Positions 651-7,361 of a DNA stretch of 7,626 nucleotides are shown one piece after another. The notes beneath the pieces are model-generated. The model saw only the letters and a program-made list of their open reading frames with translations, ran no database searches and was not told the DNA's origin. Position numbers and translations under genes: made by a program. Location of the stretch: the IMG/VR virus record IMGVR_UViG_2778261276_000006; one strand, written 5' to 3'. The first letter of the stretch is position 1. Each line of letters begins with the position of its first letter. This DNA is from a virus (lineage: Duplodnaviria; Heunggongvirae; Uroviricota; Caudoviricetes).

Positions 651-1748
651 ATGAAAAAATTAACAGTGGCAATTTCTGCTGTAGCTGCATCAGTACTGAT
701 GGCGATGTCTGCTCAGGCAGCTGAAATTTATAATAAAGACAGTAACAAGCTGGATCTGTACGGGAAAGTTAATGCCAAGCACTACTTCTCCTCTAATGAT
801 GCAGATGATGGTGATACTACTTATGCCCGTCTTGGCTTCAAAGGTGAAACCCAAATCAACGATCAACTGACTGGTTTCGGTCAGTGGGAATATGAATTCA
901 AAGGCAACCGCGCTGAATCTCAAGGTTCCTCCAAAGACAAAACCCGTCTTGCATTTGCAGGCCTGAAATTCGGTGACTACGGCTCAATCGATTACGGCCG
1001 TAACTACGGTGTAGCATACGACATCGGTGCGTGGACTGACGTTCTGCCAGAATTCGGTGGCGATACCTGGACCCAAACAGATGTGTTCATGACTGGTCGC
1101 ACCACTGGTGTTGCAACCTATCGTAACAACGACTTCTTTGGTCTGGTTGATGGTCTGAACTTTGCTGCTCAGTACCAAGGCAAAAACGATCGTAGCGATT
1201 TCGATAACTACACTGAAGGTAACGGTGATGGCTTCGGTTTCTCTGCTACCTATGAATACGAAGGATTCGGTATCGGTGCAACTTATGCGAAATCTGATCG
1301 TACCGACACTCAAGTTAATGCAGGGAAAGTTCTTCCTGAAGTATTTGCTTCCGGTAAAAATGCAGAAGTTTGGGCCGCAGGTCTGAAATATGACGCTAAC
1401 AACATTTACCTGGCCACTACCTATTCTGAAACCCAGAATATGACTGTATTTGCTGATCACTTCGTTGCTAATAAAGCCCAAAACTTCGAAGCTGTTGCAC
1501 AATATCAGTTCGATTTCGGTCTGCGTCCGTCCGTTGCTTACCTGCAATCTAAAGGTAAAGATCTTGGAGTATGGGGCGATCAGGACTTAGTCAAATATGT
1601 TGATGTAGGTGCAACCTATTACTTCAACAAAAATATGTCTACTTTCGTTGATTACAAAATCAACCTGCTTGACAAAAATGACTTCACTAAAGCACTCGGT
1701 GTAAGCACTGATGACATCGTTGCTGTAGGTCTGGTTTACCAGTTCTAA
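651..1748 (+). CDS. nmpC: Outer-membrane general porin, prophage-encoded NmpC/Lc/OmpD family (365 aa, apparently intact)
   Basis: ATG start; signal peptide [23 protein letters not shown] with AQA-AE cleavage site; glycine/aromatic-rich beta-barrel composition; C-terminal ...VGLVYQF with terminal Phe typical of porins. Sequence recognised as NmpC/Lc-like. No IS interruption. Confidence 0.93.
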
Positions 1749-1937: not shown

Positions 1938-2321
1938 TTAATTAGAGTTATTAACAACGATATCCATCTCTAACCGGATATCTAATGCCATTAACATCCC
2001 TTCAATTATGCCCTCAGCCTTCTGTAACCTTTTCCCGATATAACCATCAGAGCAGCAATGCTTACCTGCCAGTGACATGAATGTCATACCGACTACATAA
2101 TAATCTACTAATAAATCGTGCAAATCGCTGTTGTTCTTTTTCAGACGGGCCATGCACCCGCAAATGATCATCGCGTCATCGTCACAACATTGCGGGCGAG
2201 ATTTTACTTTTGAAGGAATTAATCCCTTAAAACCGGCGGCAATGGACGACCAGGTCACATCTTCATGATTATTAGCCGCCCACGCTCCCCAACGCTCAAG
2301 AACCATCTGAATATCACGCAT
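1938..2321 (-). CDS. quuD: Late-gene antiterminator Q (QuuD-like, 127 aa)
   Basis: ORF track protein from [11 protein letters not shown]... to ...VVNNSN recognised as DLP12 QuuD. I place the start at ATG 2321-2319, preceded by GGAG 7 nt upstream, rather than the TTG at 2336 used by the track. Confidence 0.9.
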
Positions 2322-2406
2322 CAACTTACTCCACAAAAATCAGACCAGAACGCCAATCACAAGCAAAAATCAACAAAACAGTATTAGTTGATTGTTATCT
2401 CTGACT

Positions 2407-2547
2407 TCATACTCCTGCTCCTGTCAGGGTTTTGGCGTAATTCTTCAGTATTCGGTAATCGGTCAAAACAGAACCGGGGAAACGATATAAGCGCAGATGC
2501 CCCCAGCGGTGGCGAAGAAGTTCTGCCATATAAAACTCAAACATCAT
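2407..2547 (-). CDS. ylcG: Small protein YlcG-like (46 aa)
   Basis: Hand translation of the minus strand: [46 protein letters not shown], then TGA. Its ATG (2547-2545) overlaps the rusA TGA stop (2546-2544) as ATGA. Same position as ylcG between rusA and quuD in DLP12. Below the ORF-track length cutoff. Confidence 0.5.
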
Positions 2548-2906
2548 TCATTCCCCATTTCGGTGATGGTCAGTTCCAGCCTCCCACCTTTGGTAACAGG
2601 CATCTTCACAACGCGGTAATCAACGACCTGAGCATCATCCAGCCAGAAACCTGCTTTAGTGAGTGCGTCAAAAGCGGCTTTTTGCAGATTATCCAGGTCA
2701 CGGCGACGGCGATCCGGCATGTGGCACTCAATGCGGATTTTCACAGGCATAGCCAGGCCGATATCCAGCATTGCGTTTTTAATGATTCGGGCGACGTTAT
2801 CGCGGTATGCCTGCCCCTCTGCGCTGATGTGCGTGCGCCCGCGATTATGGCGGTAATAGCGATTATTGCTCGGAGGCCAGGGTAATGTGATGCTGTAGGT
2901 ATTCAC
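2544..2906 (-). CDS. rusA: Holliday-junction resolvase RusA (120 aa)
   Basis: Protein [24 protein letters not shown]... recognised as RusA. GTG start at 2906-2904 overlaps the ybcO stop (GTGA). Confidence 0.93.
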
Positions 2907-3193
2907 GCCTTAATAACCCCCTCTTTCAGCCAGATAACCTGTGTTCTCGCCATACCTTCCAGCGCGCATTCTTTTGCATACTCAGCATCGACAAAATGCG
3001 TGCGACGGTCGATCTCATCGTGACAGGCAGAACATGCAATGGTGGCAATCAGGTCTGGCGGTTTGGTACCGGTGCCACACAATTCAGCCAGCCGGATATG
3101 TGCCAGTACAGACGTTTCAGGGTTGCCATTACATACGCCAGGGATTCTTACCTGGCATTCCCGACCACGCGCTGCTTTTCTCAAATCAGCCAT
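2903..3193 (-). CDS. ybcO: YbcO-like Cys-rich putative nuclease (DUF1364), 96 aa
   Basis: [33 protein letters not shown]...CSACHDEID... Start placed at ATG 3193-3191 behind a strong AAGGAGG SD; the track's TTG at 3232 is a spurious N-terminal extension. Confidence 0.85.
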
Positions 3194-3356
3194 GATTCCT
3201 CCTTGCTGCCAGTCGCAACCATTTTTTATCAACCAGGCTGGCGGTATACCCTAGCAGTGTTGGTATTTCGGATGGCTTCAGCTCAGGCTTACGCTTACGA
3301 CGATTTGGTACTCTGTAGATGTGTCCGTTCATGACCCGAATAAGCGGTGTAGTCAT
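3186..3356 (-). CDS. ninE: NinE (56 aa)
   Basis: [59 protein letters not shown] 3356-3354 with AGGAGG 4 nt upstream; overlaps the ybcN stop by 1 nt (TAATG). The 3' end overlaps the ybcO start by 8 nt. Confidence 0.85.
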   Translation of the reverse strand: MTTPLIRVMNGHIYRVPNRRKRKPELKPSEIPTLLGYTASLVDKKWLRLAARRNHG

Positions 3357-3811
3357 TACGCCTCCTGCTTGTCGCGCAGCAGCTGGAACTCGCAGCTCTG
3401 TGGAATAGTCAGGTGGCAACCAATATTCATCGCCCAGGCTTCAACCTTACACAGGAAGACATACATCTCTCCGGTATCAAGATCGGAGGTATGGCGTAAC
3501 GACTGGATAGTGGTGATATCACCGGTTACGACATCAACCAGGTCTTTGGTTTCATAACCGAGATATGTGTGTTTGAGAGCATCTTTTACCCAAGCTGGAG
3601 TGGCGAACGTTTTACCCCTGCTGATGAGGTATTCACTGATTTCGCTGTACCACATGTGGCTGAGTGCATTCTGGGAAAGACTGCGTCTCTCGCGCCACGG
3701 TTTAAGCACCATGCGAAAGCATTTGCCGTCCTCCAGATAAGGCTGGATCTGCCGACCGATAGCGGTGAAGTTACCGCGATGCAATTTGATACCATCTTGT
3801 GGGAGGTTCAC
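3356..3811 (-). CDS. ybcN: YbcN (151 aa), DLP12 nin-region protein reported as DNA base-flipping protein
   Basis: ORF track protein [30 protein letters not shown]... recognised as YbcN. GTG start 3811-3809 with GGAGGTG SD 4 nt upstream. Confidence 0.9.
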
Positions 3812-3909
3812 GCTTCACCTCCGCAGAGATCAAACGTTGGATGCAAGATATCGCAGGTGCATTTCTGCATCTGTGACTGGTTGAAAGGTGTTCTGATTGT
3901 CGTTTGCAC
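3808..3909 (-). CDS. ylcH: Small ORF, YlcH-like (33 aa), translationally coupled to ybcN
   Basis: Hand translation: (GTG)[33 protein letters not shown], then TGA overlapping the ybcN GTG (GTGA). GAGGGGA SD 6 nt upstream of the GTG at 3909-3907. Position matches ylcH upstream of ybcN in DLP12. Identity by position and length only. Confidence 0.4.
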
Positions 3910-4051
3910 TTTGAGTCCCCTCAAAGCGCAGAAGTCACCGGAGTTGTTCAGGCTCCGATGACATGATTATGGCGAGTTGATTATGATGAATCAATAGGTT
4001 CTTATGTCAAATGAACACTAGATTCAAAGGAGGGTAACAATTATCATAGCC

Positions 4052-4069
4052 AATGAGATTAATCTCATT
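4052..4069. promoter_or_regulatory. 18-bp perfect palindrome AATGAGATTAATCTCATT, candidate operator upstream of the 472-aa gene
   Basis: Read directly; centred about 27 nt upstream of the ATG at 4087, just 5' of the AAGGA SD (4076-4080). Confidence 0.3.
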
Positions 4070-4086
4070 TTTAATAAGGAAATTTC

Positions 4087-5505
4087 ATGAAATATTTCTC
4101 AACTGGTTTTTATGTTTCAAACTCCACATCTCTAGCTGAGATCTTTAATGAATGTTTTTCTTGGGTAAACGACTCACCACATACAACTTTTATTCCAGCA
4201 CAATTAGTATGTGATTATAAAAGCGAGGAGTACTTCATAGAGTCTAAAAATGAAAGAATTGATATAATAAATTATAAAAACAAAGATACTAGTTTAGGCT
4301 GTTTTAGGTATTCGAAAATATCTGAGCCACACAAATGGGTAACAGATATTTCAATTAATAAAAATCTCAAAACTGATACCATGTGGATTCAGGTGGAATC
4401 TAGCGTTGTAAGCCAAGATGCAGCTTATCTAGCCCCGCAACCTAAGAAACCATTAGTTGTTATGAGATTGATTGATAAATTTCCTGGTGGTCTTGATGAT
4501 ATTTTCAAGGTGTCAGTCGAACCTCATTCCTTAGATGATACTGATGAACATTTAAATATAGCAGCTAAAGTTATAAATGGTGAAACTGACAACAGACTAC
4601 CAATAATATACGTTAGCTCCAAGTATTTTTTTAATGAACATGCTCACAATATCATCCCAGAACGCCTTGCAAGAAAGGTATGCGGATTAGCACATGTATT
4701 AATTGAGCCTAGCAATAGACTATTTTCTACTAAGCTAAAAAATGAGACAAATGCTAAAAATGCCTATGCTGGTGCTGTTGGTATCTATTGGCCACGGGGT
4801 CAAAATATCAGTTTTTATCGCCGTGGTGAGAAAACCGCAAAAGAATTTGAAGATGAGTTATTTGATGATGTTGTAAGAGCTACGACTACAATGGCTCCTG
4901 TCTCAGATAGTGGATGGAGTGAGATACAAACCAGAAAAACGAAAGACTCTATTAACTCACTCAAAGAAAGAGGAGAATACACACGCGAACTGATGGCGCT
5001 TTACGAAGCCGATAATGTTGCGAAAGATGACCAAATAGAAGATCTTAAGCATAAGATCTCCTCTTTAGAGCACAGAGTACGCACTCTTCAATCACAAGCT
5101 TCAGCCCAAGGAAGCATTGTGCTTAATGCTGGTGAAGAGACTGACTTTTTTGATGGAGAAATCAAAAATATAATTATTGACGCACTAAAAACTGCCATAA
5201 AAAATAAAAATGAATTTGGTAGAAGCTACCATAGCTTATCATCCCTAATTGCCAATAATGAATACAATAAAGAAACCGAGAGTCGCCGCCAATTACTTAA
5301 AAGGACTTTAACAGGTTACAGAAGCATGGATAGCGCAACACAAAGAAATTTAAAGGACTTAGGTTTCAGTGCGTCAAGCGATGGAAAACACTGGAAGTTA
5401 ACATATAATGAAGACCCTCGATATTCCTATATTTTACCTAAAACAGGAAGTGACCACAGAGGTTCTTTAAATGCTATCTCGGATATAGCAAACATTATTT
5501 TCTAA
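4087..5505 (+). CDS. Hypothetical protein, 472 aa, unassigned family; candidate prophage accessory / anti-phage defence gene
   Basis: Long uninterrupted ORF in AT-rich DNA, where stop codons are frequent. ATG with AAGGA SD 6 nt upstream. No signal peptide or obvious transmembrane segment, no Walker A motif. Central region predicted helical/coiled-coil (…EDLKHKISSLEHRVRTLQSQASAQ…). Followed by a hairpin terminator. Confidence 0.85.
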   Translation: MKYFSTGFYVSNSTSLAEIFNECFSWVNDSPHTTFIPAQLVCDYKSEEYFIESKNERIDIINYKNKDTSLGCFRYSKISEPHKWVTDISINKNLKTDTMWIQVESSVVSQDAAYLAPQPKKPLVVMRLIDKFPGGLDDIFKVSVEPHSLDDTDEHLNIAAKVINGETDNRLPIIYVSSKYFFNEHAHNIIPERLARKVCGLAHVLIEPSNRLFSTKLKNETNAKNAYAGAVGIYWPRGQNISFYRRGEKTAKEFEDELFDDVVRATTTMAPVSDSGWSEIQTRKTKDSINSLKERGEYTRELMALYEADNVAKDDQIEDLKHKISSLEHRVRTLQSQASAQGSIVLNAGEETDFFDGEIKNIIIDALKTAIKNKNEFGRSYHSLSSLIANNEYNKETESRRQLLKRTLTGYRSMDSATQRNLKDLGFSASSDGKHWKLTYNEDPRYSYILPKTGSDHRGSLNAISDIANIIF

Positions 5506-5512
5506 TAAATTT

Positions 5513-5548
5513 CAATAGCACTCACAAATGAGTGCTATTGTTGCCACT
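5513..5548 (+). terminator. Hairpin terminator between convergent cargo ORFs
   Basis: Perfect 12-bp stem caatagcactca (5513-5524) / tgagtgctattg (5529-5540) with 4-nt loop caaa, 8 nt after the TAA of the 472-aa gene. The 3' flank TTGCC is only weakly U-rich. Confidence 0.5.
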
Positions 5549-5556
5549 GAATTACT

Positions 5557-5811
5557 CTATTTAAATTCAACTTTTATCCCTTTGTTTAGCAGGGCATCAG
5601 AAACTGCCTTTTTTGTAACATTTATCCCTGCAAGCAATGCTTTATGCATTGGTCCCTTAAAAATCTCTACTTCTTCTTCAGTGAGTTTAGGCAATGTAAT
5701 ATAAATAACATCTTTCATCTGCTTGTTTTTATAGCATGAGCTTCTTGTGTGCTTACAATCGATATTTTCTTTATTTCCCAAAACATCATCCCCTTTATAA
5801 TTCAGTTCCAC
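5557..5811 (-). CDS. Questionable small ORF (84 aa from a GTG; shorter from internal ATGs), hypothetical
   Basis: Open frame in AT-rich DNA, convergent with the 472-aa gene. No convincing SD before the GTG at 5811 or the first internal ATG. C-terminal part (…MHKALLAGINVTKKAVSDALLNKGIKVEFK) is faintly reminiscent of a small DNA-binding fold. May be non-coding. Confidence 0.3.
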   Translation of the reverse strand: MELNYKGDDVLGNKENIDCKHTRSSCYKNKQMKDVIYITLPKLTEEEVEIFKGPMHKALLAGINVTKKAVSDALLNKGIKVEFK

Positions 5812-5869
5812 ACATCAATTATTTAGTTATCACGAATGTCGTAAAACTAAAATTAGTAACAATAATTGC

Positions 5870-6163
5870 TCATACCCACTCTCTTCCATATAAAGCCAAC
5901 ACCCGCTTCATCGCGGCACTTTGACGACACTCCTTAAAAATCAGATTCGTGCTCACCTTTCCTTCCCGTTCTTCTCTGGTAGCGAACCGGTAATACACCG
6001 TTCGCCAGACCTTACCATCAACGACCAGGATTCCTGCCCGCGCCATTTTAGCCGCAGCCTGATTTATGCTGGTTACGGTTGCGCCTGTTACCGCGGCAAC
6101 GTCCTGCGCACAGAAGTTCTTATGAGTCCCCAGGTAATGAATAATTGCCTCTTTGCCCGTCAT
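5870..6163 (-). CDS. ren: Ren (97 aa)
   Basis: MTGKEAIIHYLGTH...AAKMARAG...RFATREEREGK... recognised as lambda Ren. ATG overlaps the P stop (ATGA). Confidence 0.88.
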   Translation of the reverse strand: MTGKEAIIHYLGTHKNFCAQDVAAVTGATVTSINQAAAKMARAGILVVDGKVWRTVYYRFATREEREGKVSTNLIFKECRQSAAMKRVLALYGREWV

Positions 6164-6861
6164 ACACTTGCTCCTTTCAGCCCAAACTTCGCTTTGATTT
6201 CTGCGATCTTCGCCAGAGACTGAACACGATTAAGCGGTCTCCCGCCCATAACAGGAAGTTGTTTTACTGGTTCAGGTATCGCCTCACCACGGTTAATTCG
6301 CGCTGTCATACAGGCCAGTTCATCGGCAGCCTTGCGCCGTAATTCCGCATCAGTCAGCGCATTGGCCCGCATGTTCTGATACAGGTTGGTAACCAGCCAG
6401 TAGTGCGCGTTTGATTTCCACGGATAAGACTCTGCATCCGGATACAGGCCACGTTTCCGGCAATACTCGTAAACCATATCAACCAGCTCGCTGGCGTTTG
6501 GCAGCCCGGCGGTAACGGATGCTTCTTCCCGGCACCAGGCAACAAACTGCCCGGGTGATGGCAGGAATGGTCGATTCTGCCGACGGGCTACGCGCATTCC
6601 TGCATTAACCTGTTCCATCGTGGTGATCCCGTTTTCCCGGAAAGCCAGAACCCACTGGCGGCGGATTTCGTTCAGTTCGTTCTGGTCCCGGTTAGCCAGG
6701 CTCGCCGGGAAAGTTGCCAGTAACTGGCTGAACACACCATTGATGATCTGCGCTACCTGTTGTACCTGCGGCTTTTCTTCGTACTGTTCCGGCATGTTGT
6801 TGGCGATCCGGCGCATCTGCTCACGGTCAAAGTTAACCATCTGTGCGGCGATGTTTTTCAT
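6160..6861 (-). CDS. P: Replication protein P (DnaB-loading), 233 aa
   Basis: Near-identical to lambda P as recalled (MKNIAAQMVNFDREQMRRIANNMPEQY...KAKFGLKGASV). GGTGGAG SD; ATG overlaps the O stop (ATGA). Confidence 0.95.
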   Translation of the reverse strand: MKNIAAQMVNFDREQMRRIANNMPEQYEEKPQVQQVAQIINGVFSQLLATFPASLANRDQNELNEIRRQWVLAFRENGITTMEQVNAGMRVARRQNRPFLPSPGQFVAWCREEASVTAGLPNASELVDMVYEYCRKRGLYPDAESYPWKSNAHYWLVTNLYQNMRANALTDAELRRKAADELACMTARINRGEAIPEPVKQLPVMGGRPLNRVQSLAKIAEIKAKFGLKGASV

Positions 6862-7361
6862 AGCTCCACCCCGTAAATCCAGTCAGTGTTCGTCAGGTCG
6901 AGTTTTGGTGTGCCGGCTGTCACGCCAGCCTGTTGCTTGTTTCGGTTGATTTCGAGCTGGGTCCACTTGTCGCGGAGTTTGGCTGGACTCAGCACGTTAC
7001 CGGACCAGAAGTTGTCCTGGCATGCCCAGCGGAACAGCACGCACATGTCGCGGTGGTTACGTCCGTCACGTTCACGCATCAGGCGGATATCGTTAGCCCA
7101 CCTTGCAAAATTCGGTTTTCTGGCTGATGGCGCGATGGTCTTCACCATGTCAAACATCCACTCTGCGGCGGTCAGGTCTTCTGCTGTCCCCCACTTGCTG
7201 CCACTCTGAATTGCAGCATCCGGTTTCACCACAGGAAGGTCGTTTTCTGGCTGGTCAGAGGATTCGCCAGAATTCTCGGACGAAAAAGGTTTTATATTGT
7301 CTTTTGTTAGTTTGTCTTTTGTGTTTACCTGATTCGGGTAAGCGCCTTTAGGCGCGATCAC
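6858..7361 (-). pseudogene. O: Replication initiator O, C-terminal fragment only (N-terminal iteron-binding domain missing)
   Basis: Track protein matches the lambda O C-terminal half from about the last iteron onward (...YPNQ..SSENSGESSDQPENDL.VVKPDAAIQSGSKWGTAEDLTAAEWMFDMVKT...WIYGVEL). The frame opens at a GTG (7361-7359) three codons after an in-frame TAG (7370-7368). Upstream minus-strand DNA does not encode an O N-terminus in any frame. Confidence 0.65.

Follow-up and report, generated by a model that had tools for sequence, protein, structure and literature searches.

A solitary prophage cargo gene for a predicted HicA-like RNase on a scaffold related to the defense protein HEC-07

What is the function of the 472-aa protein encoded at positions 4087-5505 of a 7,626-nucleotide (nt) stretch of virus DNA (Caudoviricetes; IMG/VR record IMGVR_UViG_2778261276_000006; the whole stretch is called the window here), the gene of which is transcribed in the opposite direction to the early-right genes of the phage and the homologs of which are named 'hypothetical' in every source? 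The original prediction, made from the letters alone, described an orphan with a two-domain sensor/effector layout of the kind found in single-gene abortive-infection proteins. The answer that we consider moderately probable, judging from sequence comparison and structural modeling, is that the gene is a prophage moron encoding a single-chain cytoplasmic anti-phage immune protein, namely an autoinhibited HicA-like abortive-infection ribonuclease (RNase) built on the scaffold of the defense protein HEC-07 (Hma-embedded candidate 07).

The open reading frame (ORF) is real and intact. Its coordinates and length, as given originally, are borne out by the ORF list, the translation and full-length homologs, the alignments of which begin at residue 1 of the protein; RefSeq calls the same coding sequence (CDS) in 24 E. 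coli genomes as a 'hypothetical protein'. The gene can be considered intact because expression signals are present (Table 1) and because all 38 positions that are at least 90% conserved among 210 homologs, a set of full-length members with a median identity of 30% to the window protein on which the conservation values given below are based, have been retained. The promoter candidate among these signals is weak, given that the scanned region yields 14 sites versus 7.9 expected.

The protein is not an orphan either. A word-indexed search retrieves 74 clusters, all of ~470 aa, from Enterobacterales, Pseudomonas and Caulobacter, and an exhaustive profile search retrieves 3,472 representatives (clusters at 50% identity) with an expectation value (E) ≤1e-3, including 1,035 with E ≤1e-30; nearly all of the best 150 of the 3,472 representatives are full length. 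A scan of one genome per species detects the family in Alpha-, Beta- and Gammaproteobacteria as well as in Planctomycetota, Acidobacteriota, Gemmatimonadota, Nitrospirota and Verrucomicrobiota. In E. coli, the distribution is patchy, since only 35 of the 5,426 complete genomes (0.6%) carry the gene, 24 of them in the form of the window allele and 11 in the form of an allele of ~73% identity. No paper on the family was found in the literature searched by accession and by architecture.

The AlphaFold2 (AF2) model, which was built from 42 homologs and has a mean predicted local distance difference test (pLDDT) score of 82, shows a layout of five modules, that is, a helix-grip domain, a redox-dead thioredoxin fold, coiled-coil-like helices, a helical bundle and a C-terminal alpha/beta domain (the boundaries are given in Table 1). 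Thus, the helical, coiled-coil middle and the distinct C-terminal region that had been read from the translation are both recovered, the latter resolving into a linker, a bundle and a small alpha/beta domain, whereas the single large N-terminal region is replaced by two domains. The similarity of these two domains to START/Bet v 1 proteins and thioredoxins, respectively, is at the level of the fold, with 10-11% identity; a confident match to a well-characterized non-defense family, which could have contradicted the original prediction, was looked for and none was found. The conserved residues of the thioredoxin-fold domain include D137, P172, Y175, S177, G200, A202, H203, E207, P208, G229 and W235-P236, of which D137 is invariant, H203 and E207 are conserved in 99% and S177 in 97% of the members. 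By alignment, S177 would fall after beta1, where a CxxC motif would lie, and, judging from the fold, S177, the W235-P236 loop, H203 and E207 would occupy the position of the thioredoxin substrate-binding site. In the two long helices that follow, one heptad register places hydrophobic residues at 60% of the a/d positions, compared with at most 35% in the other registers, and the modeled region (276-335) is probably a coiled-coil connector or an oligomerization element. The linker contains conserved G349, E351 (95%) and D353, and the next module is opened by the invariant E358; this three-helix bundle, in which R379 is also invariant and N391 is conserved in 93% of the members, has no fold or family match.

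The motif content of the protein is in line with what had been noted from the translation. There is no transmembrane segment or signal peptide-like stretch, because the highest 19-residue Kyte-Doolittle mean amounts to only 0.75. A motif scan of the translation found no Walker A, HExxH or CxxC motif, and readings of the protein as a nucleoside triphosphatase, a metalloprotease or a redox enzyme were rejected on account of these absences. The sole Rx4-6H string, RKVCGLAH (196-203), for which a HEPN assignment had rightly not been claimed, is of the kind that occurs at least once in 84% of shuffled sequences; its arginine (R196) is conserved in just 48% of the 210 homologs, and it is located in an alpha/beta thioredoxin-fold domain, not in an all-alpha one, so that the HEPN reading was also rejected. 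Searches of Pfam, NCBIfam and PDB sequences with the window protein returned nothing useful (no Pfam match at E ≤0.01).

The closest known system is found in PADLOC-DB, where the sole match of the window protein is HEC-07 (E 1.2e-9; residues 82-337 aligned with positions 103-369 of the 553-position model, ~48% of its length). The HEC-07 models are matched by 39 of 42 family members (PDLC04161, best E 5.6e-15), with PDLC04159 matched by 13, and in a comparison of the family profile with the first 400 residues of the HEC-07 protein WP_033943166.1 (549 aa, from the supplement of the respective paper), hhalign reports 95.9% and E 5.5e-9 over 228 columns, covering residues 82-322 of the window protein. 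The motifs [KD]WIT[DE], GxAHVxV and ELxxLYExDN are common to the family and HEC-07. These profile alignments establish residues 82-322 as homologous to a validated defense protein. According to its description, HEC-07 (PADLOC-DB PDLC04158-04161) combines an AdoMetDC-like domain and a thioredoxin-like domain devoid of CxxC with a RelE-type RNase at the C-terminus, in which His543 is conserved, and it is among the seven of nine candidates that lowered plaquing in E. coli (Payne et al., bioRxiv 10.1101/2024.01.29.577857). Like HEC-07, the protein studied here is encoded by a single gene (about 470-550 aa), is homologous to it from the end of the N-terminal domain through the CxxC-less thioredoxin-like domain and the next helix, and ends in a small domain of the RNase-toxin type with a conserved His, which is predicted here and known by description in HEC-07. 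Both the HMM and the hhalign matches to HEC-07 end before the C-terminal domain, and it is at this end that the two proteins differ: the C-terminus of HEC-07 is described as RelE-like (HP0892-like), with His543 near the very end, whereas the C-terminus here is HicA-like, with the His roughly at position 24 within the domain. The settings differ as well, in that HEC-07 is embedded in Hma systems and the 472-aa gene is cargo of prophages, islands, integrative and conjugative elements (ICEs) and plasmids. With best E-values of only 1e-9 to 6e-15, the family is not among the PADLOC HEC-07 seeds, and because it has the scaffold but lacks the RelE-type effector, it is best described as a sister branch of HEC-07 rather than a strict member.

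The last module is the best conserved one, with a mean column identity of 0.63 versus 0.38-0.49 elsewhere, and contains one of the five residues that are invariant among the 210 members (D137, P172, E358, R379 and H435). A motif G433-[KR]434-H435-x-K437 (G433 90%, [KR]434 90%, H435 100%) is located in the beta1-beta2 turn, and D443, R445, Y446, K452, S455, D456, R458 and N462 are conserved as well. The modeled domain shares with HicA (PF07927; PDB 6HPB, 5YRZ, 6G26, 4C26, 1WHZ) the alpha-beta-beta-beta-alpha topology of the double-stranded RNA-binding domain (dsRBD) type, the G-x-H in the beta1-beta2 turn, with the invariant His aligned with HicA His23/His24, and a conserved P...D...G-type beta3-alpha2 loop.

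Several searches converge on the same family. In hhalign, a profile of 76 C-terminal sequences matches E. coli HicA (PDB 6HPB_A; 85.6%, E 5.6e-6), pairing H435 with HicA His23 and G426 with Gly14; E. coli HicA is also the top PDB chain for this profile (E 0.48), whereas a profile of 28 sequences yields no HicA match in PDB at E ≤10. The Pfam family most often matched by the C-termini is HicA_toxin (18 of 76, best E 1e-3; 6 of 28 in the smaller set), and two members match the PADLOC 'HicA-like' model (best E 2.6e-5). Among phage protein families, the domain (411-467) matches phrog_2053 at ~1e-9 to 1e-10; bona fide HicA matches the 'toxin' phrog_353 first and phrog_2053 second, and family members match phrog_353 with E 0.004-0.04. 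In a Foldseek search of the modeled domain against 350,542 chains, ranks 1 and 2 are occupied by the HicA proteins of E. coli and S. pneumoniae, with probabilities of 0.66 and 0.51 and template modeling (TM) scores of about 0.45-0.5. In B. pseudomallei HicA, His24 is essential for toxicity, and Gly22/His24 are functionally important (PMC3969222). We consider it quite likely that the C-terminal domain belongs to the HicA superfamily, and the alignment and the model together suggest that it is most likely an RNase domain with His435 as the catalytic residue. Hence the absence of any enzymatic signature in the original prediction does not stand, given that the C-terminus is HicA-like and that its invariant His falls on the position that is essential in HicA.

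The window protein scores below the Pfam gathering threshold for HicA_toxin and is therefore not filed as a member of PF07927. It further differs from HicA, a free protein of ~60 aa, in that the domain is fused to an N-terminal region of 410 residues and is accompanied by neither a HicB gene nor a HicB-like domain: Pfam detects no HicB domain in the protein, and the neighbors in 85 loci include no recurrent family of the HicB type. In addition, D443, R445, Y446, K452, S455, R458 and N462 mark a distinct subfamily, to which the phage proteins of phrog_2053 are similar in these residues.

The stand-alone phage proteins themselves deserve a remark. Small proteins of phrog_2053 (a 72-position profile) and phrog_2089 (107 positions) match the C-terminal domain with E down to 2e-10, and their link to bona fide HicA is weak (E 0.01); by these similarities, they may be unrecognized phage-encoded HicA-like toxins or decoys.

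Whether the C-terminus cuts RNA is what separates the proposed RNase from its nearest competitor, a defense protein in which this domain merely binds nucleic acid or protein (dsRBD- or YcfA-like), with the activity residing elsewhere or with sequestration in place of killing. We regard this alternative as unlikely. No single method yields a HicA similarity above its threshold, as such a protein would allow, but the C-terminal core is the most conserved part of the chain, its only invariant residue corresponds to the His that HicA needs for toxicity, and His435 is surrounded by conserved K/R/D residues. The strong conservation of the D137/S177/H203/E207 cluster in the thioredoxin-fold domain would be accommodated by an activity elsewhere; against this, E207 is missing from the tested HEC-07 protein, which has VLTGP at the position of the VEP of the family and is a relative known to defend. 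Finally, HEC-07 bears another RNase at the same position, which fits a swappable effector.

Fused HicA proteins have been considered previously. The survey of Gerdes (2024, mBio; PMC10865869) distinguishes 14 HicA contexts, fused proteins included, and none has such an N-terminal architecture. The closest parallel is the Class 13 fused HicBA (PMC10865869), which is likewise monocistronic, with a large N-terminal portion fused to a canonical HicA domain at the C-terminus, and has been proposed to be an autoinhibited anti-phage protein; however, Class 13 proteins (340-440 aa) are described as having a mostly alpha-helical N-terminus, in contrast to the beta-rich helix-grip and thioredoxin fold here. 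By analogy only, CapRel(SJ46) also combines, within one chain, a translation-targeting toxin with a domain that has two tasks, inhibition of this toxin and sensing of a product of the phage, but there is no sequence or fold relationship, and the CapRel toxin is N-terminal, of the tRNA-pyrophosphorylating RelA/SpoT type, with a known trigger.

We propose the following scheme for the HicA-like RNase. In the uninfected lysogen, the RNase would be held inactive in cis; restraint in cis is suggested because a separate HicB is lacking and because a multicopy ColE1 plasmid can carry the gene (see below). The likeliest inhibitor would be the acidic linker together with the helical bundle (336-411, with the invariant E358 and R379), in the role of an antitoxin built into the chain. 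The helix-grip and thioredoxin-like modules could serve as the sensor by binding either a protein of the phage or a ligand induced by infection, and the coiled coil would pass the signal, possibly via a change of oligomeric state, so that the RNase is freed. The freed RNase would cleave mRNA independently of the ribosome, as HicA does, translation would stop, and the superinfecting phage would be aborted before progeny are formed. Relative to HEC-07, such a protein would have the same scaffold, with the RelE-like RNase exchanged for a HicA-like one. The single-gene sensor/effector abortive-infection protein of the original prediction thus persists in part: the solitary gene and the HEC-07 scaffold speak for it, if only indirectly, whereas the number of modules is five, not two.

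Several points weigh against this interpretation. We infer the steps of cis-inhibition and triggering, and for family members defense, toxicity and RNase activity are all predictions from sequence and model. Instead of belonging to a sensor, the conserved polar cluster D137, S177, H203 and E207 could form a catalytic site. The homology to HEC-07 is remote (~18% identity, over about half of each protein), and each of the HicA signals is below strict significance on its own. The gene has no homolog in 50,697 deposited phage genomes searched with tblastn, and two of its loci are without a mobile-element or defense context.

The genomic context is that of solitary cargo on mobile DNA. Clustering of the neighbors in the 85 loci reveals no recurrent family except integrases (7 loci) and no conserved partner; the median upstream gap is 175 bp, and a same-strand upstream neighbor no more than 40 bp away exists in only 3 of 79 cases. 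The guanine plus cytosine (GC) content of the gene is below that of its flanks in 98.5% of 67 loci, the median difference being -14 points and the extreme -28 points (in the Caulobacter example, 44% in the gene versus 72% in the flanks), and its composition seems to be largely independent of the host genome. In the window, as in 23 further complete E. coli genomes, the gene sits in the ren-ybcN slot of a lambdoid prophage, whereas the ~73% allele is outermost in a tRNA-Phe-integrated island, adjoining the integrase. A P2-like prophage of Serratia has it inserted on the opposite strand between gpS and gpV, the site that orf30 occupies in P2. It also borders a P2-like prophage in one Pseudomonas, and in Dickeya and P. 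syringae it is ICE cargo. The gpS-gpV slot was rejected as a documented defense hotspot, since the P2 hotspot documented in the literature is gpA-gpQ (Rousset et al.). Adjacency to tRNA genes was likewise rejected as a general hallmark, the signal being modest only: a tRNA gene is present in the flanks (up to 8 kb per side) of 14 of 60 loci, and within ~600 bp in 3.

In two Pseudomonas species, two genes lie directly upstream of it on the same strand, one for a HipA_C-like kinase (~326 aa), the other for a protein of 248-249 aa. The latter protein has a weak HIRAN match (loci L001, 6119-7844; L012, 6109-7828; L013, 508-2227), and the pair could be a second defense or toxin module that travels along or part of a clade-specific three-gene unit. 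On metagenome contigs, a member with 25% identity occurs with a small radical-SAM protein and a transglutaminase-core protein, and with two Schlafen AlbA_2/HATPase_c_4 proteins, one of which has a Fic-like C-terminus, in addition to an Hsp70-like gene in one contig; this conserved cluster looks like a defense island.

In K. pneumoniae, a homolog with 49% identity is encoded on a mobilizable ColE1-type (ColRNAI) plasmid of 5,897 bp (NZ_CP028803.2), and such plasmids are present in several isolates, with the homolog as the sole sizeable cargo along with Rop, a helix-turn-helix gene and the plasmid's own RelE/ParE-TraY pair; the plasmid is a convenient natural construct for functional work. This context bears on another explanation, which we rate as less probable still than a merely binding C-terminus, that is, a selfish fused toxin-antitoxin element for addiction or stabilization, with no role in phage immunity. 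A toxin domain of the HicA type, residence on prophages, islands, ICEs and plasmids, AT-rich composition independent of the host, and the discussion of fused HicA proteins as toxin-antitoxin derivatives (PMC10865869) are all compatible with such an element. However, the 5.9-kb carrier plasmid already has a RelE/ParE-TraY pair, the prophage slots that are occupied are those of exclusion and defense cargo, and the scaffold relative HEC-07 gave phage defense; moreover, a single chain lacks the differential stability of toxin and antitoxin that post-segregational killing by type II toxin-antitoxin systems normally requires. The remaining explanation, an accessory protein outside conflict (such as a regulator, a thioredoxin-fold protein akin to chaperones or a START-like ligand binder, serving the life cycle of the prophage or the metabolism of the host), would suit the similarity in fold to thioredoxins and to the lipid-binding START/Bet v 1 proteins and the fact that some homologs are found among housekeeping genes in no obvious mobile context, but is very improbable considering the missing CxxC and low identity to thioredoxins, the absence from deposited phage genomes and rarity in E. 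coli noted above, the unrelated element types that carry the gene, which argue that it is not tied to the biology of one phage, its transcription against the phage operon and the homology to HEC-07.

Extending the proposal of an autoinhibited HicA-like RNase to the whole family, we tentatively suggest, with somewhat less than even confidence, a phylum-spanning immune family (at least 3,400 clusters), with the window protein as its founding example, that combines a common sensor scaffold (helix-grip domain, redox-dead thioredoxin domain and coiled coil) with swappable RNases, HicA-like in this protein and RelE-like in HEC-07, and a helical cis-antitoxin, and in which the thioredoxin groove (S177, W235-P236, H203, E207) has been repurposed for a phage trigger. 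If the proposed function is correct, it would provide a role for a widespread 'hypothetical' family that has no Pfam domain, would widen the little-studied HEC-07 type to a modular superfamily with swappable RNase effectors, and would add a fifteenth genetic context of HicA domains, one that lacks HicB, raising the question of how one polypeptide can keep a HicA toxin in check and then set it free.

Table 1. Features of the window and modules of the 472-aa protein (residue numbers refer to this protein)
Feature	Coordinates	Strand	Basis or remarks
nmpC-type porin, 365 aa, intact	651-1748	+	Pfam Porin_1, E 1e-156
Antiterminator Q	1938-2336	-	
rusA	2544-2906	-	
ybcO	2903-3232	-	
ninE-like gene	within 3186-3419	-	
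ybcN (NinB-like)	3356-3811	-	
ylcH-like small ORF upstream of ybcN	3809-3910	-	
Sigma-70-like promoter candidate ATGACA-18-TATGAT	3958-3987	+	Consensus scan, 10/12; ~100 nt upstream of start codon
Low-GC (30-39%) cargo island with 472-aa gene and orf84	4005-5869	.	GC profile; between ybcN/ylcH-like ORF and ren
Shine-Dalgarno-like AAGGAA	4076-4081	+	Direct sequence reading; ~7 nt before ATG
CDS of 472-aa protein	4087-5505	+	ATG at 4087, stop codon 5503-5505; ORF list, translation, full-length homologs
N-terminal beta-sheet/helix domain, helix-grip (Bet v 1/START-like), residues 1-135	4087-4491	+	Conserved W26, S30, W84, P122
Thioredoxin-fold domain without CxxC, residues 136-275	4492-4911	+	Structural matches
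Two long helices (277-295, 300-335), residues 276-335	4912-5091	+	AF2 secondary structure; heptad register test; motif ELxxLYExDN, also in HEC-07
Low-confidence linker with acidic motif GxExDx[FY], residues 336-357	5092-5157	+	pLDDT 56-63
Three-helix bundle, residues 358-411	5158-5319	+	AF2 helices 358-371, 379-390, 396-408
HicA-like dsRBD-type alpha-beta-beta-beta-alpha domain, putative RNase, residues 412-472	5320-5502	+	Model topology
Codon of His435, predicted catalytic residue	5389-5391	+	210/210 members
Perfect 12-bp inverted repeat CAATAGCACTCA/TGAGTGCTATTG	5513-5540	.	Terminator-like scan and sequence; 8 nt past stop codon
orf84, 84-aa ORF, convergent with 472-aa gene, low GC	5557-5811	-	ORF list
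ren	5870-6163	-	
Replication gene P	6160-6861	-	
End of replication gene O	6858-7361	-	

Comparison with the usual map of the phage assigns the window to a lambdoid prophage of E. coli that resembles DLP12 (Table 1); an Rfam scan of the window gave no match. The island that holds the gene is 1.9 kb in size, between flanks with a GC content of 50-56%. In ~2,500 other E. coli prophages, similarity from the ybcN side ends at about 3985-4005, and the segment 5541-5869 is present solely in the same 24 complete E. coli genomes that have the window allele. The corresponding interval of K-12, between P/ren and ybcN (ninB), holds emrE-ylcJ-ybcK-ybcL-ybcM, and in an O157:H7 prophage, its contents are a gene with a HEPN domain, the small partner of this gene and a P22AR-like/antirepressor-like gene. 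Because K-12, O157:H7 and the window each carry different cargo, the ren-ybcN interval can be regarded as a variable cargo slot, and in DLP12-like prophages it is marked as a place worth mining for immune genes. The annotation of the ylcH-like ORF next to the left junction varies, from intact (102 bp) in some genomes to a truncated pseudogene in strain PEC408; these differences suggest that insertion of the island disturbed this junction.

The second gene of the island, orf84, co-occurs with the window allele in exactly 24 genomes and is absent from the 11 genomes with the ~73% allele. It has no match in Pfam, PHROG, PADLOC, NCBIfam or, by tblastn, the 50,697 phage genomes. A role as an antitoxin or partner was rejected for the family as a whole because orf84 is missing from the ~73% allele and all other contexts; it may have a local role beside the 472-aa gene in E. 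coli. The hairpin with the 12-bp stem, which sits between these two convergent genes, is likely a bidirectional transcription stop or insulator that shields the moron from pR-driven read-through. As orf84 shares its strand with ren, P and O, it would be transcribed from pR, and it is pure speculation that it might act as a self-immunity or anti-defense factor. One RefSeq record names it 'phospholipase D-like domain-containing protein'.

Outside the island, the nmpC/OmpC-type porin gene downstream of Q is a classical lysogenic-conversion moron, and in the K-12 record an IS5 element directly follows the corresponding porin gene. Strain PEC408 has a similar intact prophage in which Q and the holin are separated by a DUF3800 gene and the S24-peptidase (cI-like) repressor gene adjoins a DUF7946 gene (the two accessory genes fall within 2897-3700 or 11775-12638 of the locus record). 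Being located at classic moron sites, on the opposite strand or as accessory genes, these two are further candidates for accessory or defense genes.

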